Both the position numbers and the translations under genes were made by a program. A stretch of 64,000 nt of DNA from an uncultured virus (IMG/VR IMGVR_UViG_3300031133_000403) (lineage: Duplodnaviria > Heunggongvirae > Uroviricota > Caudoviricetes). Positions within the stretch are counted from its first letter, which is position 1. Each line of letters begins with the position of its first letter. Below, piece after piece: positions 3,858-59,720 of the stretch. The notes below the pieces were generated by a model that was not told the origin of the DNA, searched no databases, and saw only the letters and a list, made by a program, of their open reading frames with translations. The DNA lies in IMG/VR virus record IMGVR_UViG_3300031133_000403, one strand, 5' to 3'.

Positions 3858-4856
3858 ATGGCTATCTTCGACGGACTGAGAAGGGCTGCGGGCCTCACCA
3901 CCGACGCCGACCGCGAGGAGGCGCGCAGGAAGTTCGACTCCCTGACGCACGCCCAGGACGAACGCGGTGCCTTCGTGCGCAAGGTCGTCCAGGGCTTCGA
4001 AGGGGCCGGCGACGATCTCGTGCGGCGCGCGCTTCCGCAGACCGGTGCGGCGACCTCTCCCAGTCGGGGAACTCCGCGTCGCATCTCACGCGACCCGGAC
4101 GTCAGGCGCGCGCAGATCGCCCAGGGGGCCGATCACGAGTTCAGCCGCTTCGTCATCGATTCCTCGAATTTCGGCGTCGGCACCGAACTGGGCGCCGTCG
4201 TCCGCAAGACCGCGATCGACCAGCTGACCGCGCATCCCGCTCTGCAGCAGCTCGTTCCGCATTCCTCGAGTCCTTCGCGAAGGGCGTCCAGCCTCGCGAC
4301 CGTCCTCCACGAGCAGGGCGTCGCGAACGCGAAGATGGTCCGGACGTACCTCGAGGCGGGTCCCGCCAGCGAGGCCGCGGTGACCAGGTCCGCCCAGAAG
4401 CTCGCGATGGATGACCATTCCGCCGATCGCGCCGTCACCCTGAAGGCGGCGGCCGGTCCATCGGGCGTGGCTCCTTCCGACATGCGCGAAGCCGCCTCGC
4501 TGGCTCTGGCCAAGGCCCGCGCCGGCGTGCTGCCTCCGGAGACCGTCGTCAAGCTGGCGCTCCTGCCCTCGAACGTCCTGTCGCGCGTGGGTCCAGAAGC
4601 GGGTCTCGCCAGGGCCTGGCCCGAGCCTAAGCGCATCATGCCCAACTATCACATCGCCGCCCTCACGGAGCGCGACCCGGACGCCCGGCAGGCCCTCGTC
4701 GACAGCTTCCGCACGACCCCCGACAAGCCGCTCCCGACCCGGTTCGTGCTCCCCGCTCCGGATGTGACGACGGCGCCCAAGGAGGCCCGTGAGAGGAAGC
4801 CGCAGGTGAACGCCGCCGCGATCGTCGCGATCTCCCATGGTCTGGGGAGGGGCTGA
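3858..4856 (+). CDS. Hypothetical protein (332 aa)
   Basis: AAAGGA upstream; fills a region with no credible minus-strand gene; followed by hairpins. Confidence 0.75.
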   Translation: MAIFDGLRRAAGLTTDADREEARRKFDSLTHAQDERGAFVRKVVQGFEGAGDDLVRRALPQTGAATSPSRGTPRRISRDPDVRRAQIAQGADHEFSRFVIDSSNFGVGTELGAVVRKTAIDQLTAHPALQQLVPHSSSPSRRASSLATVLHEQGVANAKMVRTYLEAGPASEAAVTRSAQKLAMDDHSADRAVTLKAAAGPSGVAPSDMREAASLALAKARAGVLPPETVVKLALLPSNVLSRVGPEAGLARAWPEPKRIMPNYHIAALTERDPDARQALVDSFRTTPDKPLPTRFVLPAPDVTTAPKEARERKPQVNAAAIVAISHGLGRG

Positions 4857-4880: not shown

Positions 4881-4997
4881 CGATGTCGCAAAGGCCGCAA
4901 TCCCGACGGTCTTGCGACATCGGGCGGGCCGGGGTGGCCGGACGGGGACGTGCCGACCCTCTCCGGCCGAGACCGGTCGACACGTCCCCGTCCGGCC
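4881..4997. terminator. Two tandem hairpins between convergent genes
   Basis: CGATGTCGCAA...TTGCGACATCG (4881-4922) and a perfect 17-bp stem at 4936-4952/4981-4997. Confidence 0.55.
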
Positions 4998-5000
4998 GGC

Positions 5001-5126
5001 TCAGATGACCCGCGTCACCAGCATGACCATGGCGCCCACGACGCCCCAGGATCCGGTCGTCAGACCAACCAGCACCAGCGCCCGGCGGCGTGGGCTCATG
5101 TATTGGGTATCGGGTTCTTTCTCCAT
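5001..5126 (-). CDS. Small membrane protein (41 aa)
   Basis: Manually translated: MEKEPDTQYMSPRRRALVLVGLTTGSWGVVGAMVMLVTRVI. Confidence 0.4.
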   Translation of the reverse strand: MEKEPDTQYMSPRRRALVLVGLTTGSWGVVGAMVMLVTRVI

Positions 5127-5195
5127 GCGGGGAGTCTATCCTGAAAACCAGTCGACCGTCAATCCGGACGCCGCGGTTCCGAAGAACGGGTACGG

Positions 5196-5938: not shown

Positions 5939-7381
5939 ATGATGACGAAGGACGTTCCCGTTCGGCGCGCGAAGCAGCGTGCCAAGAAGATCGCCGCCCA
6001 GGGCGGCTCCCACCAGAAGGCGCTGGACGACATCGCGCGCGCCGGCGGTCACGCCCACTGGTCCGCCAGGCTCGACGCGGCCGGCGCACCCGCGACGTTC
6101 GACGCCGACAGGCATGCGGCCGACGCTGCGGTCGTGTTCACCCGCACCTGGCTCCTCCACGACCCGGTGCGCCATGACGCCTGCGTGTCGTTCGTGGTGT
6201 CGTGTCTTTCGCACGAGGCGAAGCCCAAGGTGACGAGTCTCGTCGCCAAGATGTTCGTCGGCATGTGGCTGCGCAGGCATCCCTCCACCATGGGCGCCGA
6301 GACGGTGTCCGACGCCGTCGCTTCCCTCATGGTGGCGTCGTTCGACATGCTGGAGGAGGCACGGACGCAGGCCTCGAGGACGGGTTCCTCCTTCACCGAT
6401 CGCCAGGGTCATTTCCTGAACAGGATGATTCTGGAGTCCACGGGCGACATTACCCTCGCGGAATCGTCTCTTCTGAAGCAGTCCGATGGTCTGGACATCG
6501 AACACGCCGCCGCCTGCATCGCCCACCGCTGCCGCGTCATCGCCAACTCCCCGGTGGACGCGATGATCGACGTGGATTCGTCACGTCTTCCGCTCGACGT
6601 CGTCGCGGCGATGGTCGCCTCGAAGGCCGATGGTGCCATGCTCGATGCGCGGCAGCGTGACGCGATCGACCGTCTCGTGTCCCTCAGTCCCCCGTCCACG
6701 CCGTTCGCCGGCGACATTTCGTGGGGTCTGAGGGACATCGCGTCCGCGCTCGGTGACGAGGTCGAACGCATGCGCCTCGCCCTCTGCGTCCGCGGCATGA
6801 CGTGCGGCGTGGTCTCGCTGCTGCTTGACCGGCTTCCTCTCCGCGACGGCGCAAGAGGCATGGTCGAGACCTACGGGTCCGCGCTCGGCGCCGGATCCTC
6901 GGACTGTCTCACCTCGTCATGGCTGCTCGATTCCTTCGAGAAGATCGACGCCGGCGCGCGGCCCTTCAGCTACAACCCCCTCGCCGGCGCCATGTCCCAT
7001 GGCATGACGAGGTCCGCTGACGCGGACCTGCTCGTCGCGATCTCGCCCCTCCCGCTGACGACGGGACGATCCGATGGCGAGGCCTCCGCCAAGGCCGTTC
7101 GCCTCATCGCCGACCTGGCCTGGACGCTTCGGGGCGCGGGGTCGAGAAAGAATGAACTGGGCGTCGACGATGCACCCATATCCCTGCCGATGATCAGCAC
7201 GGTGATCGACCGCTGGGTGCCCAACCCCGCTCAGATCGCTCTCTTCGCGTCCCTGAACGGCATGGACCGGGATCTCGTCGCCAGACTGCGCTCGTCGCTC
7301 CTCGATGCGTCGACCATGTCCCTGGTGCGCGATTCCCTGCTCGCCTTCCGCAACGAGGCTCTGGCCCGGGCCGCGTCGTGA
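5939..7381 (+). CDS. Hypothetical protein with N-terminal glyoxalase-superfamily (Glyoxalase_8-like) helical domain
   Basis: AKQRAKKIA...SHQKALDDIARAGGHAHW pattern; GAGGA RBS at 5929. Confidence 0.65.
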   Translation: MMTKDVPVRRAKQRAKKIAAQGGSHQKALDDIARAGGHAHWSARLDAAGAPATFDADRHAADAAVVFTRTWLLHDPVRHDACVSFVVSCLSHEAKPKVTSLVAKMFVGMWLRRHPSTMGAETVSDAVASLMVASFDMLEEARTQASRTGSSFTDRQGHFLNRMILESTGDITLAESSLLKQSDGLDIEHAAACIAHRCRVIANSPVDAMIDVDSSRLPLDVVAAMVASKADGAMLDARQRDAIDRLVSLSPPSTPFAGDISWGLRDIASALGDEVERMRLALCVRGMTCGVVSLLLDRLPLRDGARGMVETYGSALGAGSSDCLTSSWLLDSFEKIDAGARPFSYNPLAGAMSHGMTRSADADLLVAISPLPLTTGRSDGEASAKAVRLIADLAWTLRGAGSRKNELGVDDAPISLPMISTVIDRWVPNPAQIALFASLNGMDRDLVARLRSSLLDASTMSLVRDSLLAFRNEALARAAS

Positions 7382-18746: not shown

Positions 18747-19211
18747 TCAGGCGAGCATCGCCTTGACGCGCGCGCTCGTGGTCTTGGCGTCGAACTTGCC
18801 CTTGAAGCCCTCGTTGAGATGCTTCATCACCGCGCCCATCGCCTTGGGGCCGCGCTCGAGGCCCTCGAGCGCCTTCTCGATCTCGGCATCGACCTCTGCA
18901 TCGCTCATCTGCGAGGGCAGGTACGCGTTCACGATCGAGAGTTCGTAGTCCTGTTCGTCGGTCGCACGATCGAGCTTCACGAGCGCGTCGCGCATCTCGA
19001 CCACTTCCTTGCGGTAGCGGTTCACGCCGTCGATGACGTCGTTGCGGCCGTCCTTGACGTCGGGGCCGTCCTCGCGGATCGCGCGGTTGCCGTCGTCCTT
19101 GGCGAGCAGCTGGATCTTGCTCATCAGCAGCGTGAGCACCTTCAGCCGGCGGGCGTCGCGCTCGCGCCGCGCCACGTTGATGTCGTTCTCGATCTTGGGA
19201 AGCATGGTCAT
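18747..19211 (-). CDS. GatB/YqeY domain protein
   Basis: ELSIVNAYLPSQMSDAEV...KAMGAVMK...VKAML is typical of YqeY. Confidence 0.85.
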   Translation of the reverse strand: MTMLPKIENDINVARRERDARRLKVLTLLMSKIQLLAKDDGNRAIREDGPDVKDGRNDVIDGVNRYRKEVVEMRDALVKLDRATDEQDYELSIVNAYLPSQMSDAEVDAEIEKALEGLERGPKAMGAVMKHLNEGFKGKFDAKTTSARVKAMLA

Positions 19212-20278: not shown

Positions 20279-22852
20279 TCATGCCGCTTGCGCGAAGGCG
20301 CGCAGGACGTCGGCCGCGGCCGTGCCCTCCAGCGCCATGCGCTTGTCGTCGTCGGCCATCGCCGCCTCGAGCATCCGGCGCACCGTCTCCGGACGCGCAC
20401 GCCCGGCTTCGATGTTGGCCGCCATGCCCTCGAGCGCGCGGACGTAGTTGCTCATGTCGCGCACCTTGAGCTTGGCGTCGGGACGGATGCCCATGCCCTC
20501 GGCCTCCGTGCGGTCGCCGAGATAGGTCTTGTGGAGCGCGATGATGCCCATGCCGAGCGCCTCGTCGGGGAGCGTGCGCGCCCAGTCGAGGAAGGGCAGC
20601 CACTCCGGCATGTCCTCGTAGCGTTCGCGGTCGAAGTCGGTCTCCTTGCGGCGGCACAGCGCGATGCGCTCCACGGCCGAACGGCACCGCTTCAGATGCG
20701 CGTAGAACCAGGCCTTCGACTTCCACTGGCGGTCCGAGCGCCCGGGCAGGGTGCCGGCCGAATCCTGGAAGACGATGCCCTCAGTGGGATTGTCGCGACG
20801 CCACTTCGGATCGGTCTCGACCCGCTCCATGATGGCGCGCAGCGCGCGCCAGTCGCGGATCTGCGGGAACAGCCGCTCCTTGACCTCGCAGCCGAGCCAC
20901 TTGCCGATCGCCAGCAGGGTGTCGTAGTCGACCTGCTCGAACTTCTCGGAACGGCGCACGCATCCGATGAGCACCAGACGGTCCTCGGGATAGTCGATGA
21001 TGTGCGGATCGTTCTCCATGTCGACCGCTTCGAACACGAGGCTCGCGACCTGGTCGCGGTTGAAGCGCAGCAGCTTCTCGGTGCCGGCGACGCCGAGCTT
21101 GCGGTGCACCAGATCCTGCGCGTATCCTGCGAACGTGCCCTCGACCCGGCTCTTCGACGCGATGATGAGTTCCTGCGTGCGTTCGGAGTATCCGGTGATG
21201 CACAGGAAGCCGTTCAGCTTGTCGAAGCCGTCGACCGGAAATACAATCGAGTGTTCGAGCTGCTCATCCTGGGTTTCGCGCCTTTCGCCGTGATTCCAGA
21301 ACTTCTCGTATGATCGGGCGACGGGCGTGTGATCGATGTTGTCGATGAATAGACCGCGTGCGATCGTCGTGTAGTCGTCCCAGGTCTTGGAATAGAACGC
21401 CTGCTTGGTGAAATTCACGGACGATACGTGCGGCATGCTTTCCGACGGATTCACCGAGACCATGCCGTGGTTCTCGAAGGCGGCCATGGTCTCCGCCGAA
21501 AGCGGTTCGACCTTGTCGTCGCCGCGCGCCGCCCAGGGGGTGATCGGCGCCTGGTCGTCGAAGGACTTGCGTCCCGCCGCGTCGTCGATCGCGCGTGCCT
21601 GCTGCATGGTGCGGTACTCACTTGAACGGATTTGAACGGTGTGCCAGCCTTGGGCGTCGAGGATCGCGAAGCGCATCCACCCGCCGAACTCGACCTGGCC
21701 TTCGAGATTGAACGACTTCGCCGAACCGGCTTCGGCCGCGAGGACGGGCAGGACGCGCGAGTTCCTGTGACCGTGCACCTGCACGAGCCCGGAATCCTTT
21801 TCCGCCTCCACCCACATCGCATCGATGCCGTGTCCGTAGTGCCCGTTGCCGCGACGCAGGATGGTCTCGGGGATCAGGTGCGGATGGCTCGGCCAGCGCG
21901 ACAGGCCGCCGTGCGTCACCAGCACCTGCTGGTCGTGCCAGCGGTACATGTAGAGCGGCACCGTGTCGGCCGCGACGCGCACGAGGTCGTCCCGCGTGAT
22001 GCCGGCCTCCTCGAGCTGGGGCGCCGTGCGGTCCCGGTACTCGCGGCTGACCGCGGGCCGGCCGGCGGCCGCGATCTCGATGTGGTCCTCGTGGTTGCCC
22101 GCCACGAAGACCACGTTGTGCCGACCGAGCGCATGGTCGATGTACCAGCGCAGCACCTTCCCGTTCTCGACGCCGCGGTCGAGGAGATCGCCGCAGAAGA
22201 TGTACAGGACGTCGTCCTCCAGCCCGTTCGCCAGCGGCGAGGCGGGATCCAGAAGCGGGTGCAGCGTCCCCTGCAGATCGCCGATGTGCACCACTTGCCG
22301 GTATGCCGAGGCGTCGCGCAGCTGCGTGTCGCGCGTCAGGAACGCCATGGTCTCGGCCAGCGGCTGCTCGAGCGCGTCCATGTCGCCGACGCGCACGGTT
22401 GCGAGGCCCGCCGCGAGCGCCTGGTGCGACGCCTGCTCGTAGCAGCGCTGCACCGCGAAGTCGGGCACGCGCAGGCGTTCCGGGCGCGCGCGGTTGGCGA
22501 CCAGCGCCTGCGCGGTCGGCACGTCGTAGAAATCGACGACCAGCACGCGGTACCGGTGCTCGTCCGCCAGATCCAGGATGGTCTGCACGTCGCGCTGCAT
22601 GGGCATGGTGGCCTCGAAGGCGATCGTCTCGCCGTCCTTCATCCGTCGGGCGAGGGATTCCAGCGTGACCGCGCGCACCAGCTGGTTGTGCTGCTGCGGA
22701 ATGGTCATCTCGCCGCTGATCGCGACGGTGTCCCCCGACACGATCTCGCGCACCTTGTCGAACGACAGGTGGTGGCCCTCGAGGCCCAGACGCCGCACGA
22801 AGCCGCTCTTGCCGGTGCCCTGCGGGCCCCGGACGATGATGATGTTGCGCAT
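20279..22852 (-). CDS. RNA repair enzyme: polynucleotide kinase + metallophosphoesterase + RNA ligase
   Basis: P-loop GPQGTGKS; phosphoesterase GDLQG, GDLLDRG, GNHE, THGG, VHGH; ligase KLNG, EGIVF, KSK. Confidence 0.9.
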   Translation of the reverse strand: MRNIIIVRGPQGTGKSGFVRRLGLEGHHLSFDKVREIVSGDTVAISGEMTIPQQHNQLVRAVTLESLARRMKDGETIAFEATMPMQRDVQTILDLADEHRYRVLVVDFYDVPTAQALVANRARPERLRVPDFAVQRCYEQASHQALAAGLATVRVGDMDALEQPLAETMAFLTRDTQLRDASAYRQVVHIGDLQGTLHPLLDPASPLANGLEDDVLYIFCGDLLDRGVENGKVLRWYIDHALGRHNVVFVAGNHEDHIEIAAAGRPAVSREYRDRTAPQLEEAGITRDDLVRVAADTVPLYMYRWHDQQVLVTHGGLSRWPSHPHLIPETILRRGNGHYGHGIDAMWVEAEKDSGLVQVHGHRNSRVLPVLAAEAGSAKSFNLEGQVEFGGWMRFAILDAQGWHTVQIRSSEYRTMQQARAIDDAAGRKSFDDQAPITPWAARGDDKVEPLSAETMAAFENHGMVSVNPSESMPHVSSVNFTKQAFYSKTWDDYTTIARGLFIDNIDHTPVARSYEKFWNHGERRETQDEQLEHSIVFPVDGFDKLNGFLCITGYSERTQELIIASKSRVEGTFAGYAQDLVHRKLGVAGTEKLLRFNRDQVASLVFEAVDMENDPHIIDYPEDRLVLIGCVRRSEKFEQVDYDTLLAIGKWLGCEVKERLFPQIRDWRALRAIMERVETDPKWRRDNPTEGIVFQDSAGTLPGRSDRQWKSKAWFYAHLKRCRSAVERIALCRRKETDFDRERYEDMPEWLPFLDWARTLPDEALGMGIIALHKTYLGDRTEAEGMGIRPDAKLKVRDMSNYVRALEGMAANIEAGRARPETVRRMLEAAMADDDKRMALEGTAAADVLRAFAQAA

Positions 22853-22946
22853 GGCGCATTTTCCCCTTCAGGACGTGATTCAAGGAAAGCCGTTCAAACC
22901 AAGCCGGCCCTCCGGCATTGCCCGATCCACTGCCATATTCGTCGTA

Positions 22947-22965
22947 ATAGTGCAATATGCACTAT
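22947..22965. promoter_or_regulatory. Perfect palindrome, candidate operator
   Basis: ATAGTGCA-ATA-TGCACTAT in an AT-rich patch about 95 nt upstream of the RNA-repair gene. Confidence 0.55.
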
Positions 22966-23081
22966 CTTATGATTGAGACGGTCAGGCGCGCGTGTTCCCG
23001 CCTCGCGGACCGGCCAGTCGTTCCGCGAGGCGGGATGCTCCAGGCGTGCACGTGTCGGACGTCGTCGTCCGGGAGCCGTCG

Positions 23082-28411: not shown

Positions 28412-30096
28412 GGCTTCCACGATTGTCAGGTTGATGGGCAGGAGCTCCAACCTGAAGCCCTGGTCTATGCGACGTGTCCGATCTGAGCGGCGGCCACCGT
28501 GAGGTGTCCGCTTTTCCTCGAACCCATTCGTCGCACCGCGTACCTCCTGCCCGTATGGTCGAAGGGCCCGGGATCCATCGCCTGGAGCGGTGGATGCGGG
28601 CGGCGCACGTCAATCTGCGCCGCTTTCACTGCCCGGTGGATCGACTTCCAGCATTCCGCCTGCGTCGTGGCCTTGGCCATGACGTCCGGCACCGCCCCAT
28701 CCTTCCATGGGAGTGGCTGCACCGTCCGCGGAACCACCGGAAGGCGGTCCTTGTCTCCACGTGACGTGGCAATGCCGCGTCGCGCGATCTCCGCTGCGGC
28801 CGCACAGGCGTCCGGCAGGTCGAAGAGCATGTTGCCGATGGTGGTGGAGTATCCACCCCAGATCGACGAAAGCGTAAGGCCGGACAATGCGCAACGGCGG
28901 GCGAGGCCACCGATCAGCGCATTCCGGCTCCAGAAGTTGATGGTCTGAGCTGCAGGCTCGCCGCGCGACTTCTTGGACCAGCGCAGCTTGCCGAGGCCAC
29001 CCTCGTGGAAGATGGTGGCGGCGTGCCACTTGCGGGCGAGGCTTGAGGCCATACGCGCGGCGCGCGCCATGTGCGTGGCCAGAGCCTCCGAGGATGAGCC
29101 GATCGGTACGTTCATCTGGATCAGTCGATGGTCGAGTATGCGCACTGCGCCCGCGTCGCGCGCGTCTGAGCGGTGATTTATCTCGATGACGGTCAGACCG
29201 ATCCACTGCGGGTTGAGATCCACGCCGACTGCGCGCGACGTCATCGTTCGGATGGCTGGACGCCATTCCGGATGCACTGGGCGGATGGCATGATCGACCG
29301 GTTTGATTCTGTATGCTGAGTCATGCGTATCAGGGTCGTTGCGGGGTCTACCTCGAGGCTTGTGGCCGAGCGCCTCGCGCTCGGCCTTCTGGACCTGCTC
29401 GAGAGTCGTGTCCGGCGGAAGCTTGCGCAGATCCATAGGATCGAAGGTGATGGTCACGCTCGAAGAGCCGAGCGTGAAGCCGATGCCGATCTCGCAGGCA
29501 TTGGTAAGCAGCGCGAGGGCTTTGACCAGATAGCCCGTCTTGCCGGACATCTGAGGCAGGTTGAGTGTCACGGCCTTGCCGAGGAACCCGACCGTTGCCT
29601 TAAGCCCGTCATGCGACAGTTTGAGGTGTCGGTTTCCATTACGCGTGCGGTCGCCAACAATCTCGATGGGTCTGGACTGACGGCATCGCCGCCAGTCCTC
29701 CCGACCGATGAGACCTTTTGCACGTCGTTCGAATTGCTTGCGCCCGCCGAAGATGATCTTTCCGGTAGGCTGCTGCTTGCGCATGCGCAGAGCTTCACGC
29801 GTGGCGCAATGGATCGCCCATGATCCCAGCGGATGCGTCGGGAACAGCTTCTTAAGGATGTTCCTGAGATCCTTCTCCGGCATGAGTCTGTCATTTGGCA
29901 GCCCTGCACGCGCATAACCTGTGCGCACGACGCATGCCTGAAGCCGCTGCCAATCCGCGATCAGCCTCTTGTCGTCGTCTGAAGCGACATACGGGATCGT
30001 GATCGTCTGCACGAGGAAGGATTAGCAACACTCAAGCTTCTGGGGAAGGATTATCGGGTTGGAGACACGGGGATCAACCCGATAATCCGGAGAATC
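28412..30096 (-). mobile_element. Non-autonomous 1685-bp element with TIRs and 8-bp target site duplication, carrying a TnpB-like gene
   Basis: CGCATTTC at 28404-28411 and 30097-30104; inverted ends GATTGTCAGGTTGAT / GATTATCGGGTTGAT, each starting 9 nt inside; excision restores a gene start. Confidence 0.85.
28465..30012 (-). CDS. tnpB: TnpB/Cas12-like RuvC nuclease (515 aa)
   Basis: RuvC-I AVGVDLNP, RuvC-II IFHEGGL, RuvC-III YSTTIGN...LPDACAAAAEIARRG; N-terminal IIFGGRK and GNRHLK; no Cys4 zinc finger. Confidence 0.8.
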   Translation of the reverse strand: MQTITIPYVASDDDKRLIADWQRLQACVVRTGYARAGLPNDRLMPEKDLRNILKKLFPTHPLGSWAIHCATREALRMRKQQPTGKIIFGGRKQFERRAKGLIGREDWRRCRQSRPIEIVGDRTRNGNRHLKLSHDGLKATVGFLGKAVTLNLPQMSGKTGYLVKALALLTNACEIGIGFTLGSSSVTITFDPMDLRKLPPDTTLEQVQKAEREALGHKPRGRPRNDPDTHDSAYRIKPVDHAIRPVHPEWRPAIRTMTSRAVGVDLNPQWIGLTVIEINHRSDARDAGAVRILDHRLIQMNVPIGSSSEALATHMARAARMASSLARKWHAATIFHEGGLGKLRWSKKSRGEPAAQTINFWSRNALIGGLARRCALSGLTLSSIWGGYSTTIGNMLFDLPDACAAAAEIARRGIATSRGDKDRLPVVPRTVQPLPWKDGAVPDVMAKATTQAECWKSIHRAVKAAQIDVRRPHPPLQAMDPGPFDHTGRRYAVRRMGSRKSGHLTVAAAQIGHVA

Positions 30097-40770: not shown

Positions 40771-42027
40771 TCAGGCCACGTAGCGGTCCTCGGGGATGAG
40801 GACCGGTTCGCGCGTCGCGTCGGGTTCGAAGACGTGCGGCATGATCCGGCTGTTGTAGCCCGTGATCAGACCCGCGTGCGTGCGCACGACGATGCCGCAG
40901 GGGTCGCCTCCCATCTCGTGGACGGGGAGGCCCTCGTAGCGGGGGTTGGCGCCCGACACCCATGAACCGATGACGAGATGCTCGCCGTCGATCGACGGCA
41001 GCTCGGCGTACGCCTGCCAGATGCAGTCGCCGAGATACTCGCCGTCGCTCTCCTCCATGACCGCGCCGTCCGCCGCGATGATCGCGACGTTCTGCCCCTC
41101 CATCGAGAAGACCGGCTTGCGCACGCGCGCGACGCCGGCGAGCGGGGCCTCGTCGAAGTAGGCGGGAAGCAGGTTCGGGTGTCCCGGGTTCAGCTCCCAC
41201 AGGATGGGAAGCAGCGCCTTGTTGGACAGCAGCATCTTCCACACCGGCTCGATGAACAGCGTGTCGGCCCGGCCGATGAACTTCGAGAAGTCCTCGTTGG
41301 CCATCGCCTCCCACTCGTAGTGCTTGAACAGCGTGCGGATGGGCATGCCGGCCTTGTCGACGAACCAGCCCATCTTCTCGTTGTGGCCGATGTCGCGGAT
41401 GTCGCATCGGGCGACCTTCAGGCCGGCCTCGCGTGCGATCTCCATCATGTAGACCAGGTTCTGCTCGGCTTCGGCATTGTCGTCGCGCGTGGCGAACCAG
41501 ACCGTCTCGTCGGTCTTGAACCCTTCGTGCCGCGATGCCCGGCGCCATGCGTTGAGCATCGCGTCGTCGATCCCGTTGAAGTGGTCGGTGTCGGAGCCCA
41601 GCAGCCCGCGCTCGCGGTTCTGCTCCACCCAGTCCCAGGTGACGACCGAGCCTTCGATCGTGCCGGCCGGGGTGTCGGCGTTGTATTCGATCATCTTCGG
41701 CGCGCCCACGCCGTCGTAGGCCAGATCGAAGCGTCCGAACACGTATGGATCGCGACGCCTCCACGAAGTCTCGACCAGCGCCTGCATGTGGGCCGGGACC
41801 TTCATCCGGTCCAGCCATCCGTTGCGCACGATCGCGTCCACCGCGTCGAGGCACAGATGGTGCAGCGTCAGGGTGGCGGTCTCGATCCGTTCGATCTGGT
41901 CCTGCGTGAATTCGACGTAACGGTCCTCGGTCCAGTACGGCTGGCCGTCGTTGTCGATGTACGTGAGGCCGAGATCGACGACGCGACGGCGCCAGTCAGG
42001 ACGGGGTTCGATGCTGCGGATCTTCAA
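40771..42027 (-). CDS. Glutathionylspermidine synthase-family ATP-grasp ligase (YjfC/YgiC-like)
   Basis: RPDW, YWTE, GRFDLAYDG, KMIEYNADTP, EPVWKMLLSNKALL, RKPVFSMEG, PH. Confidence 0.93.
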   Translation of the reverse strand: MKIRSIEPRPDWRRRVVDLGLTYIDNDGQPYWTEDRYVEFTQDQIERIETATLTLHHLCLDAVDAIVRNGWLDRMKVPAHMQALVETSWRRRDPYVFGRFDLAYDGVGAPKMIEYNADTPAGTIEGSVVTWDWVEQNRERGLLGSDTDHFNGIDDAMLNAWRRASRHEGFKTDETVWFATRDDNAEAEQNLVYMMEIAREAGLKVARCDIRDIGHNEKMGWFVDKAGMPIRTLFKHYEWEAMANEDFSKFIGRADTLFIEPVWKMLLSNKALLPILWELNPGHPNLLPAYFDEAPLAGVARVRKPVFSMEGQNVAIIAADGAVMEESDGEYLGDCIWQAYAELPSIDGEHLVIGSWVSGANPRYEGLPVHEMGGDPCGIVVRTHAGLITGYNSRIMPHVFEPDATREPVLIPEDRYVA

Positions 42028-52184: not shown

Positions 52185-53120
52185 TCAGAGGAACTTGTCG
52201 GCGAGATCGCGTCGCCCGATAGGGTCGATGAAGGTCGTCCTGTCGCTCCTGGGATGATGGAAGCCCGACACGTATAGGTCGTGGTCGCCGATCTCCACGC
52301 TGATGGAGAGTTCCTTTCCGTCGCCCCACGTGTCCCTGACGGATGCCTTGCAGGTCTCTCCATGCATCTCGAATTCGAACTTGTCGGAAGCCCCGTCCCA
52401 TCTGGTCGCAGCGGCTTCTATGAGCGTGCGGCTTACGGCGTCGCGCTTCTTCTTGGACAGCATGTCCAGCGACCATTCCTTGACGGGTCCGAACATCCCG
52501 CCTGCGTTCATCGCCTCGTGGATGCGACGCATGTGGAGACCGGTGTTCTGGTTGACGAAGAGCGAGGAACGCGACCCGTGGGGCCATCCGAGCAGATGCG
52601 ACCGCATGGTCCACCACGTCTCGCCGACCTCCGCCGTGTCGGCTGATGCCGCCGCCTGCCGCGTGAACCACGTCAATGCGTCGCGTCCCCTGATCGTGCC
52701 GTCGGCCTCGAGCTCCACGTCTTCGGCGCTCACCAGCACCGGGAAGGCGTTGTCCGCGTACAACGCGTCATCCAGCCTTCTCGCCTGCAGACCCGCCACG
52801 CCGTTCACCCTGTCGACCAGCGCATCCGCCGTCTTGTCGGAATACGGACACGTCAGGAACCCCCTCACGAAGGACTGGGTGTGGTCCATCCCCTCGTAGG
52901 CCTCGATCCGCATGATGTCTGAAGGCTGATCGCGATTCCCGCGCGGCGGCGCCGTCAGGATCGGGTGCCAGGAGGGATGCCTCCCGACCGCGTTGCCCAT
53001 CTCCGTCAGAACCTCGGCCATGATCGCACGGCCCTTCTCCACGTCGACCAGATCCTTCGTGAACCGTTCGACGGCCTTGGCGTTCTGCTGCGCGGCGACG
53101 GAGGGGGATCTGAATTCCAT
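52185..53120 (-). CDS. Hypothetical protein (about 311 aa)
   Basis: Long ORF with its own AT-rich upstream region; start uncertain (53120-53129). Confidence 0.75.
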   Translation of the reverse strand: MEFRSPSVAAQQNAKAVERFTKDLVDVEKGRAIMAEVLTEMGNAVGRHPSWHPILTAPPRGNRDQPSDIMRIEAYEGMDHTQSFVRGFLTCPYSDKTADALVDRVNGVAGLQARRLDDALYADNAFPVLVSAEDVELEADGTIRGRDALTWFTRQAAASADTAEVGETWWTMRSHLLGWPHGSRSSLFVNQNTGLHMRRIHEAMNAGGMFGPVKEWSLDMLSKKKRDAVSRTLIEAAATRWDGASDKFEFEMHGETCKASVRDTWGDGKELSISVEIGDHDLYVSGFHHPRSDRTTFIDPIGRRDLADKFL

Positions 53121-53128
53121 GTGCATCA

Positions 53129-53161
53129 ATACCTACGTGATATGTCGAATCACGTAGGTAT
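53129..53161. promoter_or_regulatory. Perfect 13-7-13 inverted repeat
   Basis: ATACCTACGTGAT-ATGTCGA-ATCACGTAGGTAT; extra half-site TACGTGAT at 53169-53176. Confidence 0.6.
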
Positions 53162-53246
53162 GGCATGTTACGTGATGTTAGCGCAACGTGTTTGTATGTG
53201 TGGGGATTGGAATCGGCTCGGCGTTCGCCGTGCCGTATAGTGTTGA

Positions 53247-53322
53247 TGGTGCCCCCGGCGCGATTCGAACGCGCGACGCACGACTTAGAAGGTCGATGCT
53301 CTATCCGCTGAGCTACGGGGGC
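53247..53322 (-). tRNA. tRNA-Arg(TCT)
   Basis: GCCCCCG acceptor stem, TAGCTCAG..GGATAGAGC D arm, CT-TCT-AA loop, GTTCGAAT T loop, encoded CCA. Confidence 0.93.
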
Positions 53323-53331
53323 ATGGAGGGG

Positions 53332-53568
53332 TCAGGCGATGGAGGCGGCGCTTCTTGCCGGACGGCCGCATGCCGCCACGCAGAACTGCCTGAACCTGGT
53401 GTCGGGATCGAGGCATGCGCAGTACAGGTCGTCGCCTGCGATCCGCGCGTCGACCGGACGGATCTCGGCGCGCACGCCTTCTGAAAGGATCGTCTTGCCG
53501 TCCGTACCGCGGGCGAAACCGAACGTGCGCACGTTGCGACGGACTTCGGGCTTGGTGGTCTCGAGCAT
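53332..53568 (-). CDS. Small hypothetical protein between the tRNAs
   Basis: GGAG RBS before MLETTKPE. Confidence 0.55.
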   Translation of the reverse strand: MLETTKPEVRRNVRTFGFARGTDGKTILSEGVRAEIRPVDARIAGDDLYCACLDPDTRFRQFCVAACGRPARSAASIA

Positions 53569-53594
53569 GTCTTTTTCTCCGCTGAACTTCGTCG

Positions 53595-53670
53595 TGGTGC
53601 CCGCCACAGGAATCGAACCTGCGACCTTCGCGTTACAAATGCGCTGCTCTACCGGCTGAGCTAGGCGGGC
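53595..53670 (-). tRNA. tRNA-Thr(TGT)
   Basis: GCCCGCC acceptor stem, TT-TGT-AA loop, GGTTCGATT T loop, encoded CCA; anticodon stem imperfect. Confidence 0.9.
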
Positions 53671-53676
53671 GTCCCG

Positions 53677-53946
53677 TCACTCCCCTTGCGGGATCCTGTT
53701 GTCGGCACGCCGCTTGCTGCGTCTCTTCGAGACCTTCAGCGCCGCGCGCATGTTGCGCTGGTTGCCGTACCTGTTGCCGCTCTTCTCGGGTGTGGCGCTG
53801 CCGTAGCGCGCGTCGCTCATCATCGCGACCGCTTCGAGGCGCGTCATGTCCCGCCCCTTGGCTGGCCGCCCGATCAGCTCCTCGGCCAGTTTCCGCGTGC
53901 GTTCGCTCGCCTTCCGGTGGCGCGACGTCTTGTCGGTGCGGCTCAT
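53677..53946 (-). CDS. Small basic protein (MSRTDK...)
   Basis: Arg/Lys rich; ATGA coupling. Confidence 0.7.
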   Translation of the reverse strand: MSRTDKTSRHRKASERTRKLAEELIGRPAKGRDMTRLEAVAMMSDARYGSATPEKSGNRYGNQRNMRAALKVSKRRSKRRADNRIPQGE

Positions 53947-54200
53947 GCATCCTCTCCCGTCAAGCGGTTGGCTTCATGGCGTTCGGCGCGCCGTCCCAGC
54001 ACCTTCATCGCCGCGAAGTGGCTGCGGTTGTTACCGTGGCGTACGCCGCCGTCGTCCACGCGCACCTGTCCGCGCAGCAGCCCCGAGAGCTTCACGTGCG
54101 AATGATGGCGTTTCGGCTTGCGGTCGGTTTCGCCCGTCTTGCGTGCGATGTCGGGCGCATGGATGGCCCGGGCGCGGTCGGTCTTGCGGGTCCGGCTCAT
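53943..54200 (-). CDS. Small basic protein (MSRTRK...)
   Basis: Arg/Lys rich; ATGA coupling; resembles its neighbour. Confidence 0.7.
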   Translation of the reverse strand: MSRTRKTDRARAIHAPDIARKTGETDRKPKRHHSHVKLSGLLRGQVRVDDGGVRHGNNRSHFAAMKVLGRRAERHEANRLTGEDA

Positions 54201-54367
54201 CGCGCGTCTCCGTCGACCATGAGGTCGTGACGGTGCTTGGGGCGGGCGGCGCGGTCACGCGCCTTCTGCAGCGCGCTCGGCACGCGCTTGGGCTGGTAGG
54301 CTCCGTGCGCGAGCTGCGCCGCGAGAGGGTTGCGCTTCCTGGGCGCTCGATGTGCATTGGTCTTCAC
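54197..54367 (-). CDS. Small basic protein, ArfA-like pattern (56 aa; not in ORF track)
   Basis: AGGAG RBS + GTG; MKTNAHRAPRKRNPLAAQLAHGAYQPKRVPSALQKARDRAARPKHRHDLMVDGDAR. Confidence 0.6.
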   Translation of the reverse strand: MKTNAHRAPRKRNPLAAQLAHGAYQPKRVPSALQKARDRAARPKHRHDLMVDGDAR

Positions 54368-54371
54368 GTGT

Positions 54372-54489
54372 CGTCTCCTATGCGCGCCGCGGTGCGGTGC
54401 GTGTCATGGGAGACGTGCGAAGCGTCTCCCGGCTATGGCTGGGTTCTTGTCATGCGGATGAGGATATCCGGTTGGAGGGATGAAGGCAA
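54372..54489 (-). promoter_or_regulatory. Sigma70-type promoter, leaderless uORF and alternative hairpins (candidate attenuator)
   Basis: TTGCCT-N17-TATCCT-N7-ATG ACA AGA ACC CAG CCA TAG; GGGAGACG / CGTCTCCC / GGAGACG arms. Confidence 0.65.
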
Positions 54490-54511
54490 GCACGACGTTG
54501 CAGCGTCGAAG

Positions 54512-54985
54512 CTATGGAAGCGCGATGCGTTCGAACCCGCGCTTCGTCAGGTCCCGGGCGACGCCTTCGACCATGTCGGCCTGGAGCGCGTAGCGGTTGT
54601 CGCCGCAGTCGTCGCCGCACAGTTCGACGGGAATTCCCGGGATCCCCCGCTCGTAGTGCGCGTAGTCGTCGATGCTCGCGATCGCACCCGTGCGGTGCCA
54701 TTGCGCCATGGGCACGAAGCTGATGAACGTGCGACCTTCCTCGTGCCCGATGCCGAAGCCGATCGGGCCCGTCTCCCAGATGCACGCCTCGTCGAAGTCG
54801 CAATCCTCCTCGTCGACCGTCACGGCATGCGCGGCGAGATTCGCGGAGGCGTTGTCGAACGTGCGCACGACGTAGTCGCCGACCATGGTCTTCGCGCGCC
54901 GCTTCCAGTCCGCCGGACGGGTGTCGACGCCCTGTGCCAGGAAGTGCGCGACCAGCGTGCGCTTGATGTCGTCCGAGGCGCTCAT
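54512..54985 (-). CDS. Hypothetical protein
   Basis: GGGAG RBS; acidic. Confidence 0.65.
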   Translation of the reverse strand: MSASDDIKRTLVAHFLAQGVDTRPADWKRRAKTMVGDYVVRTFDNASANLAAHAVTVDEEDCDFDEACIWETGPIGFGIGHEEGRTFISFVPMAQWHRTGAIASIDDYAHYERGIPGIPVELCGDDCGDNRYALQADMVEGVARDLTKRGFERIALP

Positions 54986-57638: not shown

Positions 57639-59720
57639 CTAGTCATGGCAGTCCGGGCAGTCCATGTGCCGGTGCCCCGCCGGAAGCGTCGTTCCGCAGG
57701 AGCGGCAGCTTCGTTTGAGACCGCCCTTGGCGAGCATCCGTCCGAGCATCTCGGAGGTCTCGTCGCGTCGCCGTCTGGCGGTCTCTCCGTGCGGGTACGC
57801 GTCCGGGAATTTGCGTGCCAGCCAGGCATAGGCGCCGCACTGCGTGGTGAGGATCTCGAGACGCTGAAGCTGTCCCGCGTCCGCCGTCACGCCCGACCTG
57901 AGTAGTGGGTCGTCCGGCACGTGCGCGGCGAGGCCCCTGCTCGTGGCCGTCAGCCATGCCGAGAGCGCGCGCCTGTTCTCCTTGGTCCTCATGGACAGGG
58001 GCAGACCCATGTACCTGAACTGCTCGGGTGCCTGCACGCCGGCCTCCTCGAGCGTCAGGAGCAGCATCCGGTCGTCCTCCGTCATCCGGTACGACAGCAG
58101 GGCATGGTCGGATACGGCTTCTGCCACGCGGTCGAGCGTCTGGAGAAGCGTGTCTTCGGGGTTGTCCGCCATGATGCGCCGGACGCCGGTCCACGTCGGC
58201 GCGATGTGCACCGTGCGGGGCAGCGTCGTGCCGCTCGACATGGCGTCGTACAGCCAGCCGGGTCTTCCGTCGCAACCCGTCATCGCCCCGACGACGCCTT
58301 CGGCATGATGGCCGTATCGCCCGGCCCGCCCTGCGATCTGGCGTACCGCCGTCGGTGCGATCTGTCGCTTCTGCTTTCCGTCGAACTTCGTCGCGGTCGT
58401 GAACACGACCCTGCGGATCGGCAGGTTCAGCCCCATGCCGATGGCATCGGTCGCCACCAGCACGTCGGCCGCGCCCGACCTGAACCGGGCGGCCTCGGCT
58501 CGGCGCACGTCCGGGCCGAGCGCACCGTAGATGACGGCCGACGTCATGCCGCGTTCGTCGAGCGTCTCCTTCCACGCCAGCACGTCGCGCCTCGTGAAGG
58601 CTATGACCGCATCGCCGGCGCGCAGATCCCGCGGCGCGATCGCGCTGCTCTCCACCCGCAGCTCGCTCTTGCGCTCGAACCGCCGCACTTCGACCTCGTC
58701 GCCGGTGATGCGCGCGATTCCCCGGATCAGGGGCAGCGAGTCCTCCGAGCCCGCCACGACGACGGTCCCCGCGTCGACCGACAGCAGCGCCCTCGTCCAC
58801 GCCCATCCGCGTCCCTCGTCGGCGAGCATCTGTATCTCGTCGATCAGCACCACGTCGTAGCGCCGGCCCAGGTCGAGCATCTCGATGGTCGACGACACGT
58901 GCGTCGCGCCGGGCGTCGTCACGAACTCCTCGCCGGTCACGAGATCGCAGGCGATGCCGCGTGCGTTCAGGGATTCGTGATTCTCCATGGCGAGCAGACG
59001 CAGGGGTGCCAGGTACGCGCCCGTTTCGGCTCGTTCGAGCATTCCCAGACCCTCGTGCGTCTTGCCGGAGTTGGTCGGGCCCATGAGCGCGACGATCCTG
59101 CGTGGCGGCAGCGGTTGCTCGCGGTGCAGGAGACGAAGGTCGGAGAATCCCAGCGCGTCCAGGCGCCGCTCGGTCATGATCCTGTCGCGTCGTTCGGCTC
59201 CCAGCCGGCGCCCTTCGGCGAGCGCGGTCTCCACGCTCATCGGCCACGCCGCCGTCACGACGCCCTCCGCGGGGCCCTCGCACGTCTTCGCCCAGCCGCG
59301 CTGCACGTCCTGGGCGCGATCCGGGAGCCGTCTGGCGATGTCCGCCGTCGTGTCCTCGTGCCAGGTCCGCAGCATGTCGGTCGTGACGGCGGGCGGATCG
59401 GCGGCCACCTGGAGCGACACGAGGGAGGCCAGCTTGAACGTCACGCCGTCCGTCCGCACTTCGTGCAGGGCGCCGGACGCGTCGGCGGCGATGCCGGCGG
59501 TCTCGAGCGCCGCCAGAAGCACGGCGCGATCCTCGACCGTCGGCGTGCGCATCACGTGCGAGGGAAGGCCGTTGCCCTCGCGGATGGCGTTGACGGGGTC
59601 CGTGCTTCCGGTCTCCATCGCGCGCGTCAGTTCCGTCGTCGAAAGGTGGATCATCCGTTCGCGTGCGACCTCGACGATCCTGTGCCGCCGCTTCTTCTTG
59701 CCCGTGGCGGTATGCGCCAT
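57639..59720 (-). CDS. Suv3-like SF2 helicase with C-terminal Zn ribbon
   Basis: GPTNSGKT, YLAPLRLLA, STIEM, IDEIQM, RGWAW, ATDAIGMGLNL, QIAGRAGR; CRSC...CPDC. Confidence 0.93.
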   Translation of the reverse strand: MAHTATGKKKRRHRIVEVARERMIHLSTTELTRAMETGSTDPVNAIREGNGLPSHVMRTPTVEDRAVLLAALETAGIAADASGALHEVRTDGVTFKLASLVSLQVAADPPAVTTDMLRTWHEDTTADIARRLPDRAQDVQRGWAKTCEGPAEGVVTAAWPMSVETALAEGRRLGAERRDRIMTERRLDALGFSDLRLLHREQPLPPRRIVALMGPTNSGKTHEGLGMLERAETGAYLAPLRLLAMENHESLNARGIACDLVTGEEFVTTPGATHVSSTIEMLDLGRRYDVVLIDEIQMLADEGRGWAWTRALLSVDAGTVVVAGSEDSLPLIRGIARITGDEVEVRRFERKSELRVESSAIAPRDLRAGDAVIAFTRRDVLAWKETLDERGMTSAVIYGALGPDVRRAEAARFRSGAADVLVATDAIGMGLNLPIRRVVFTTATKFDGKQKRQIAPTAVRQIAGRAGRYGHHAEGVVGAMTGCDGRPGWLYDAMSSGTTLPRTVHIAPTWTGVRRIMADNPEDTLLQTLDRVAEAVSDHALLSYRMTEDDRMLLLTLEEAGVQAPEQFRYMGLPLSMRTKENRRALSAWLTATSRGLAAHVPDDPLLRSGVTADAGQLQRLEILTTQCGAYAWLARKFPDAYPHGETARRRRDETSEMLGRMLAKGGLKRSCRSCGTTLPAGHRHMDCPDCHD

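Follow-up and report, generated by a model that had tools for sequence, protein, structure and literature searches.

The minus strand of an uncultured virus sequence (IMG/VR: IMGVR_UViG_3300031133_000403) carries at positions 53,247 to 54,489 a unit of small-protein and tRNA genes together with most of the 144-nucleotide (nt) spacer ahead of it, and the leader RNA encoded in this spacer folds into a hairpin that buries both the Shine-Dalgarno (SD) sequence of the first gene, the open reading frame ORF56, and its GTG start codon. The window, meaning the whole stretch of DNA that was analysed, is 64,000 nt long. The order on the minus strand is a gene for a protein of 157 amino acids (aa), the 144-nt spacer, ORF56, ORF85, ORF89, tRNA-Thr(UGU), a 78-aa ORF, tRNA-Arg(UCU) and a 117-nt spacer. 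The explanation that we tentatively favour, with a rough probability of 0.4, is an ordinary leader hairpin which occludes the SD and the start ahead of this unit.

A sequence-only reading of the same DNA had described the spacer as a candidate translational attenuator that senses the tRNAs encoded downstream of it. The elements it was built on, namely the promoter hexamers and their spacers, the pairing arms and two upstream open reading frames (uORFs), are all present on the minus strand where it had placed them, and the translations of uORF1 (MTRTQP) and uORF2 (MTRTAPRRA) agree.

The leader hairpin and ORF56

The RNA structure of the leader exceeds chance. The 99-nt leader that starts at ATG 54453 has a folding energy of -36.3 kcal/mol and a z-score of -5.06 (-4.64 in a re-run), and none of 200 shuffled sequences was as stable. 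Out of 256 sampled 99-nt windows on the minus strand, two reach a z-score of -4 or below. The fold that dominates is not the pairing of arm 1 with arm 2 but an imperfect hairpin of 61 nt (54422-54362), which alone has an energy of -30.3 kcal/mol and a z-score of -4.81, again with 0 of 200 shuffles as stable. Its pairings are CUUCGC with GUGAAG, which includes the GTG start, CGUCUCC with GGAGACG, which is the SD, AUG with CAU, and a GC-rich apical stem. This hairpin is present in both the minimum free energy fold and the centroid fold, for the leader of 99 nt as well as for that of 172 nt.

The AGGAGA of the SD is located 6 nt before GTG 54367. The alternative 11-nt pairing that had been proposed, between 54405-54415 (with arm 2) and the SD segment 54372-54382 (arm 3), is confirmed at 10 of 11 positions (91% complementary). 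On the leaderless transcript arm 2 pairs with arm 3 with a probability of at least 0.99 and the SD is unpaired with a probability of 0.18, so that the description of arm 2 as an anti-SD segment which sequesters the SD, and with it the start codon, of the GTG gene holds for the dominant fold. Arm 1 was likewise rightly described as able to compete for arm 2, as the hairpin of the two has an energy of -14.7 kcal/mol and a z-score of -4.38, with 1 of 200 shuffles as stable.

With the Rfam 15 covariance models (E <= 1, positions 53000-54800), only the two tRNAs scored above the gathering score, and 54368-54511 had no match at any score to T-box or other curated leader families. The second most structured of the sampled 99-nt windows is 6652-6750 on the minus strand, with a z-score of -5.19 and a local hairpin (6740-6675) of -40.3 kcal/mol.

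ORF56 is, judged by its homologues, a real conserved gene that starts at GTG 54367. Four homologues (P0008, P0009, P0015 and P0016) were found and all four align at the Met-Lys start, in agreement with the start that the sequence-only reading had chosen. The only PHROG match among the small proteins is that of ORF56 to phrog_20887 (unknown function), with an E-value of 0.007.

Conservation of the leader among relatives

A scan of metagenome contigs with alignment A1 gave six loci (L001-L006), of which only L001, about 98% identical, is syntenic. L001 and the window differ at 75 of 4657 positions. The stretch 54477-54169 is free of them; a single one affects the promoter spacer, at 54478, and four more are found immediately ahead of the -35 hexamer. 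The leader from the -35 hexamer to the GTG, together with ORF56, is unchanged except for 54478 in L001 and in the contigs X8, X9 and X10, which come from RNA libraries. This nucleotide comparison thus spans near-identical strains, namely L001 and the RNA-library contigs. In ORF85 of L001, six of the seven substitutions are synonymous by manual codon reading.

L001 is 2 nt shorter inside the 157-aa gene, near its positions 3937/3938 (window 54661-54662). This loss shifts the frame of the product (P0002), which reads on through the spacer; either a genuine lesion or a fault of the assembly may lie behind it.

Probable promoter and transcript start

The promoter-like site TTGCCT-N17-TATCCT fits the sigma-70 consensus at 8 of 12 positions and is therefore not called by a scan that asks for 9 of 12. 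The minus strand holds 24 sigma-70 matches of at least 8/12. The arrangement of the site with the ATG of uORF1 is rarer: the pattern TTGNNN-N16-18-TANNNT-N6-8-ATG occurs twice on the minus strand and not at all on the plus strand, against a shuffle mean of 0.04 per strand, and two or more matches were reached in 0 of 200 shuffles. Since the pattern was defined from the first instance (54489-54453), only the second one, which lies at 5162 ahead of a 41-aa hydrophobic ORF without SD, is independent. Without the ATG requirement, all three matches to TTGNNN-N16-18-TANNNT on the minus strand are intergenic, and the four matches on the plus strand fall where minus-strand genes are placed. Both hexamers are unchanged in L001 and in contig X9, with variation at 54491, 54492, 54495 and 54501 and in the spacer at 54478. 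Because the geometry is rare in shuffles, recurs at 5162 and has intergenic matches in three of three cases, a promoter with its start at or next to 54453 appears somewhat the more probable case on the sequence evidence.

The leaderless transcript at 54453 that had been proposed is thus plausible in its geometry, which has a second instance. RNA-library contigs cross the site. Neither uORF1 nor uORF2 has an SD ahead of it.

The second instance belongs to a compact unit on the minus strand (4935-5162), in which TTGACG-N17-TAGACT is followed after 6 nt by ATG 5126, without SD, and by the 41-aa hydrophobic ORF (5126-5001). Three nt after the stop of this ORF there is a near-perfect hairpin of 63 nt (4997-4935; -61.4 kcal/mol, z-score -6.77), without a T run. 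From its sequence the unit looks like a leaderless gene for a small membrane protein with its own promoter and terminator.

An occluding leader as the favoured explanation

In the explanation we favour, the 144-nt spacer would contain a probable sigma-70-like promoter and a structured 5' leader, and the hairpin of about 61 nt would act in cis as a translational damper on ORF56. The unit would be transcribed for its tRNAs while its first cistron is translated poorly. Translation of ORF56 might then take place mainly in a short co-transcriptional interval, in which arm 1 transiently holds arm 2, or when something else opens the hairpin. Both uORF1 and uORF2 would be dispensable for this.

Several observations weigh against this explanation. 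The minus strand holds 437 non-overlapping local structures of -26 kcal/mol or below, which makes the energy of the hairpin ordinary for DNA of 67% GC content. The accessibility of the SD and start of ORF56 is 0.31, which is the 8th lowest among 53 gene starts. Covariation in the leader is unreadable from the near-identical strains compared, the relatives at 50-69% protein identity being P0003, P0004, P0006-P0009 and P0016. The invariant stretch of 309 nt is only mildly unusual because several 200-nt bins elsewhere are also unchanged. Finally, contigs X9 and X10 bridge the promoter, which indicates at most read-through transcripts or library DNA.

Folding test of the proposed tRNA-sensing switch

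In the proposed sensor, uORF1, a leaderless frame of six codons, would gauge how much tRNA-Thr(UGU) and tRNA-Arg(UCU) is available: once a ribosome has arrived at its stop, arm 1 is masked, arm 2 closes the SD and ORF56 is kept OFF, whereas a stall at ACA or AGA leaves arm 1 able to trap arm 2, which exposes the SD and turns ORF56 ON. We consider such a sensor, which would have to act kinetically, very unlikely. Several features fit it. The stop of uORF1 lies 2 nt before arm 1, the hairpin of arms 1 and 2 is non-random (z-score -4.38), the leaderless geometry has its second instance at 5162 where 0.04 per strand are expected, and ACA and AGA are rare codons which follow each other in uORF1 in the same order as the tRNA genes.

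The folds with and without ribosome masking do not bear out the two states. We masked the footprints of a ribosome with ACA in the A site, with AGA in the A site (masks to 54438 or 54435 for these two) and at the stop, and compared them with the unmasked RNA. On the leaderless transcript the result is identical in all four states, with a probability of at least 0.99 for arm 2:arm 3, of at most 0.002 for arm 1:arm 2 and an SD exposure of 0.18 throughout. A ribosome at codons 2-3 of uORF1 covers none of the three arms, so a stalled ribosome equals no ribosome. The arm 1:arm 2 state has an energy of -26.8 kcal/mol compared with -36.3 kcal/mol for the minimum, and is thus 9.5 kcal/mol less stable in its context. 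For these two reasons the switch is static at equilibrium, and the sensor could therefore work solely as a kinetic race during transcription. The best path out of the arm 1:arm 2 state has a barrier of 8.3 kcal/mol. With an assumed prefactor of 1e6-1e7 per second, this would correspond to a lifetime in the sub-second to second range, and any ON state would be brief, as the state is less stable and its barrier is only about 8.3 kcal/mol. There is accordingly little chance, in our view, that the progress of the ribosome during transcription decides which of the two, arm 1 as an SD decoy or the SD proper, takes hold of the anti-SD.

On the longer read-through transcript only, masking of uORF1 lifts the probability of arm 1:arm 2 to about 0.6, because the SD pairs with a C-rich tract upstream, and the SD exposure is still about 0.26. 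The RNA-library contigs that cross the proposed transcription start count against the sensor as well.

The feedback on tRNA supply also has a logical gap. The switch would gate the translation of ORF56 and not the output of the tRNAs, which needs transcription; control of ORF56 translation by itself leaves tRNA transcription unchanged, and the model, which controls the translation of a protein gene, has no link between the two. A polarity link between ORF56 translation and tRNA transcription is conceivable from a tract with a C/G ratio of 2.0-2.2, the richest part of which overlaps the promoter. It is equally unlikely that the operon is switched on when these tRNAs are lost, for instance through cleavage by a tRNA nuclease of the host.

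Codon usage at gene starts

The rarity of the two codons had been expected from the GC content and is confirmed: among the 14,567 codons of 54 window genes, ACA occurs 1.78 times per 1000 (2.8% of Thr codons) and AGA 3.98 times per 1000 (4.2% of Arg codons). The tRNA-Thr(TGT) and tRNA-Arg(TCT) genes said to read them were both found on the minus strand, and the order of ACA and AGA in uORF1 is that of the tRNA genes. Both codons are, at the same time, enriched at the 5' ends of genes in general. In codons 2-6 of 56 minus-strand genes, the fraction of A is 0.285 compared with 0.185. ACA accounts for 4 of 280 early codons and 22 of 14,404 later ones (about 9-fold enriched), and AGA for 3 of 280 and 56 of 14,404 (about 3-fold enriched). 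The codon match is therefore less surprising than it appears. One small set of codons supplies both the A-rich codons at unstructured 5' ends and the A-ending codons that phage tRNAs serve. The leaderless-type ORF at 5126 and uORF1 share the word AAGAACCC near their 5' ends.

As a sensing signal the match is thus weakened: the codons are rare as claimed, and the signal rests on just two of them, one ACA and one AGA in uORF1 (with one further ACA in uORF2). Taken together, the analysis bears out the structure and the probable promoter, finds no toggling of the switch in silico and offers a simpler explanation for the codon match in the A-rich codons at 5' ends.

The second upstream open reading frame

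The position of uORF2 would allow another form of control. A ribosome on its AUG-ACA would sit on arm 2 and on the 5' strand of the hairpin and would free the SD, as in erm or cat attenuation, or termination at its UAG would lead to re-initiation at the GTG 11 nt downstream. uORF2 is contained in the occluding hairpin, overlaps the SD with its stop and has ACA as codon 2. The homologue P0008 carries a 12-residue extension (MTSAIPRDQETT) ahead of the Met, as extended by the gene caller, which starts with Met-Thr; this ATG-Thr start lies at 36 nt from the gene start, similar to the 40 nt for uORF2. The residues Gln-Glu-Thr-Thr before the Met of P0008 fit the SD string GGAGACGAC. In P0008, however, the stop is missing and the stretch continues without a break into the reading frame of the ORF56 homologue, so that conservation of uORF2 as an ORF of its own is not seen there. 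uORF2 also has no SD, and its AUG is paired in the dominant fold. We consider attenuation or coupling by uORF2 very unlikely.

Small-protein paralogues and a possible origin of the leader

ORF85 and ORF89 are paralogues with 34% identity (E-value 3e-7), and no further paralogues of the small proteins were found in the window. The N-terminus MSRT of ORF89 is invariant in its homologues (P0005-P0007), and ORF89 has relatives at 53-54% identity. For ORF56, ORF85, ORF89, the 78-aa ORF and the 157-aa protein there was no Pfam match even at E <= 5. In the ESM Atlas the small proteins hit unnamed viral clusters alone (0.88-0.90), and the AlphaFold model of ORF89 (predicted local distance difference test, pLDDT, 64.6; predicted template modelling score, pTM, 0.33) was too poor for a fold search.

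The paralogy allows for a further explanation, in which the leader is a by-product of decayed copies of the gene-start module of the paralogues (SD GGAGACG, ATG, Ser/Thr-Arg-Thr), and arm 1 and the MTRT mini-ORFs are relics. Arm 2 would then pair with whichever copy of the frequent SD string is present, and its regulatory role would be small or nil. A 13-nt repeat family is common to the starts of uORF1, uORF2 and ORF89. ORF85 and ORF89 both start with MSRT, invariant in the family, and with the two uORFs all four frames begin with Met-(Thr/Ser)-Arg-Thr. ORF56 and ORF85 share GGAGACG as their SD, a string to which arm 1 is equal, and arm 2 plus loop is 92% complementary to the SD region of ORF85 too. 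At the nucleotide level the leader segments are nevertheless not significantly similar to the starts of the paralogues (p = 0.08-0.5, 500 shuffles), and the three frames differ. The z-score of the fold and the invariance of the leader among strains argue for constraint, and we regard an origin as mere by-product as unlikely.

Possible termination or RNA processing in the spacer

The hairpins and the C-rich tract could instead end or cut a transcript, either as a terminator or attenuator of the upstream unit which lacks a U tract or depends on Rho, or as a helix of about 22 bp that serves as a site for a double-strand RNase and separates or stabilises transcript segments. In the mRNA sense, the C/G ratio reaches 2.0-2.2 in 54520-54404, where the background averages 0.96 with its 95th percentile at 1.41, and it stays at 1.1-1.5 through ORF56 within a C-rich and G-poor region (54520-54170). 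Rho attenuators that depend on a uORF have a C-rich, G-poor and unstructured Rho utilization (rut) tract in their leader. The ratio in the present spacer is above the 95th percentile. The tract overlaps the promoter, and its most C-rich part would be absent from a transcript that starts at 54453; the part that is transcribed is strongly structured. Other gaps in the window contain GC-rich hairpins without T runs just past stops, for instance the one of -61.4 kcal/mol after the gene 5126-5001. The hairpins of the leader lie downstream of the promoter-like site and not between a stop and a promoter. Neither has a T run after it, and the terminator scan called nothing here on the minus strand. 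Moreover, if the helix were cut in its 3' strand, ORF56 would be separated from its SD or start.

Contigs from RNA libraries speak to both sides. X8 stops at 54435, which would fit a transcript end or processing site, and X9 (54383-54722) and X10 (54283-54736) continue through and bridge the upstream gene, the promoter and the leader. As contigs, these data carry no readable starts, strands or levels and may include DNA, and the gap in X8 (54436-54731) carries no weight. A role of the spacer in termination or processing is unlikely in our assessment.

Comparison with known systems

Leader hairpins that occlude an SD, or translational operators, are known from phage and bacterial mRNAs, and the leader of the MS2 maturation gene allows translation only while the RNA is nascent. 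As in these systems, a local helix in the present leader pairs an anti-SD with the SD and start of the first cistron, and an upstream competitor would permit transient opening. In contrast to them, the unit includes two tRNA genes, the competitor is itself an SD copy, and the present case is known from sequence alone. The favoured explanation, if true, would add one more SD-occluding leader, and its interest would mainly be in annotation, with three conserved small basic proteins coupled to two tRNA genes.

In the translation attenuation of ermC, cat and cmlA, stalling on a leader peptide exposes a sequestered SD. The present leader resembles them in three respects: a short leader ORF precedes the gene, a hairpin sequesters the SD of this gene, and the RNA has alternative pairings. 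The stalled ribosome of the erm and cat leaders, however, covers a pairing segment and frees the SD, whereas a stall at codons 2-3 of uORF1 covers none, with arm 2:arm 3 at 0.99 and the SD exposed at 0.18. In addition, uORF1 lacks an SD, and what is sensed would be the supply of tRNA and not a drug.

The leaders trpL, hisL, thrL and pheM are transcription attenuators based on leader peptides. The idea that codons of a mini-ORF read the supply of the cognate tRNA is common to these and to the proposed sensor, as are mutually exclusive helices. The present leader differs from them in the lack of a U-tract terminator, in having two regulatory codons only, in translation initiation as the controlled step and in a fold that is left unshifted by masking.

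Were the sensor real, it would mean that phages monitor the pool of tRNAs they supply, which bears on why phages carry tRNAs and on their response to tRNA-cleaving defences. Among the publications listed by full-text literature searches there was none on the control of a phage tRNA operon by a uORF. One study (eLife 2023, PMC10264068) deals with phage tRNAs that counter defences directed at tRNAs. It provides a context in which a phage would gain from sensing the loss of tRNAs, and the window contains an RNA ligase/kinase-phosphatase-like gene; the subject of that study appears to be the tRNAs as such rather than a sensor that acts in cis.

Gene neighbourhood and source of the element

The features of the unit are listed in Table 1. 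ORF56 and ORF85 as well as ORF85 and ORF89 overlap by 4 nt (ATGA), and the start of tRNA-Thr follows the stop of ORF89 after 6 nt. Co-transcription of the small-protein genes with the tRNAs would be consistent with this order.

Table 1. Positions of the leader elements, genes and tRNAs of the unit in the window.
Feature	Position	Strand	Remark
Upstream gene, 157 aa	54512..54985	-	Stop 54514-54512 opens the 144-nt spacer
Promoter-like TTGCCT-N17-TATCCT	54461..54489	-	7 nt before ATG 54453
uORF1, ATG ACA AGA ACC CAG CCA TAG (MTRTQP, stop)	54433..54453	-	Without SD; predicted only, would need leaderless initiation
Arm 1, GGGAGACG, SD-like copy, can pair with arm 2	54423..54430	-	2 nt after uORF1 stop
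Arm 2, CGTCTCCC, anti-SD segment	54408..54415	-	Pairs with SD region
uORF2 (MTRTAPRRA, stop)	54378..54407	-	Without SD; AUG paired in dominant fold; stop overlaps ORF56 SD
Dominant 61-nt imperfect hairpin	54362..54422	-	Buries SD (54380-54375) and GTG 54367
ORF56, small basic protein, first cistron	54197..54367	-	Homologues; GC content at third codon positions 0.82
ORF85, small basic protein	53943..54200	-	ATGA overlaps ORF56 stop; paralogue of ORF89
ORF89, small basic protein	53677..53946	-	ATGA overlaps ORF85 stop
tRNA-Thr(UGU)	53595..53670	-	62.4 bits
78-aa ORF between the tRNA genes	53332..53568	-	ATG at 53568 behind GGAGAAAAAGAC; without known family
tRNA-Arg(UCU)	53247..53322	-	63.7 bits

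The start of the 157-aa protein is fixed by its homologues P0001-P0004, which all start with MSASD. This protein matched neither Pfam nor PHROG, and a tblastn search against phages was empty. No relative was found in the viral contig collection scanned with the 157-aa protein, ORF89, alignments A1 and A2 and P0008, nor in the genome contig collection scanned with alignments A1 and A2. In the metagenome loci L002 and L004, the N-terminal 100-150 aa or so of the 157-aa protein (MSASD...) are fused as an N-terminal domain to proteins of 605-626 aa. L003 and L005 match at the same place (5001 onward) and are the same kind of locus, and L006 ends inside the gene. The contigs of L002-L005 have a length of 122-464 kb and a GC content of 52-55%, with no tRNA within the flanks examined.

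The GC content of the window is 63-69% and nearly every coding-like frame is on the minus strand. The PHROG and Pfam matches point to a large phage-like element. The source is a phyllosphere-associated, jumbo-phage-like element of an uncultured virus, and near-identical sequence is contained in metagenome and metatranscriptome runs from the phyllosphere. Searches of phage and plasmid DNA matched the tRNAs and a short stretch outside the feature (Aeromonas plasmids), and nothing else.

Several helicase matches were found in the window, including a Suv3-like helicase at 57639-59720, for which the matches in phages are distant only (identity of at most 31%). An 857-aa RNA ligase/kinase-phosphatase-like protein (20279-22852, minus strand) matches phrog_8238 'RNA ligase' with an E-value of 1.9e-126 and, more weakly, polynucleotide-kinase and phosphatase PHROGs. 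A 154-aa protein (18747-19211, minus strand) matches phrog_1460 'tRNA amidotransferase', and a glutathionylspermidine synthase PHROG is matched at 40771-42027. Genes of RNA-repair type thus share the element with the two tRNAs.

Inverted repeats elsewhere in the window

The 117-nt spacer after tRNA-Arg has a GC content of 49%. At 53129-53161 in this spacer (53130-53246), two arms of 13 bp (ATACCTACGTGAT / ATCACGTAGGTAT), separated by 7 nt, form a perfect inverted repeat. It follows closely on tRNA-Arg and coincides with the proposed TTG start of the gene that comes next. Upstream of it there is a third copy, which is partial (ATCACGTAAC), and from its sequence the inverted repeat looks like an operator.

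The 229-nt gap (22853-23081) before the RNA ligase/kinase-phosphatase-like gene contains a 17-nt inverted repeat (22996-23035), which is 94% complementary, and the AT-rich near-palindrome ATAGTGCATATTGCACTAT. Another perfect inverted repeat, of 14 bp (GGATTATCGGGTTG / CAACCCGATAATCC), is present at 30048-30088 in an intergenic gap of 141 nt with a GC content of 55%.

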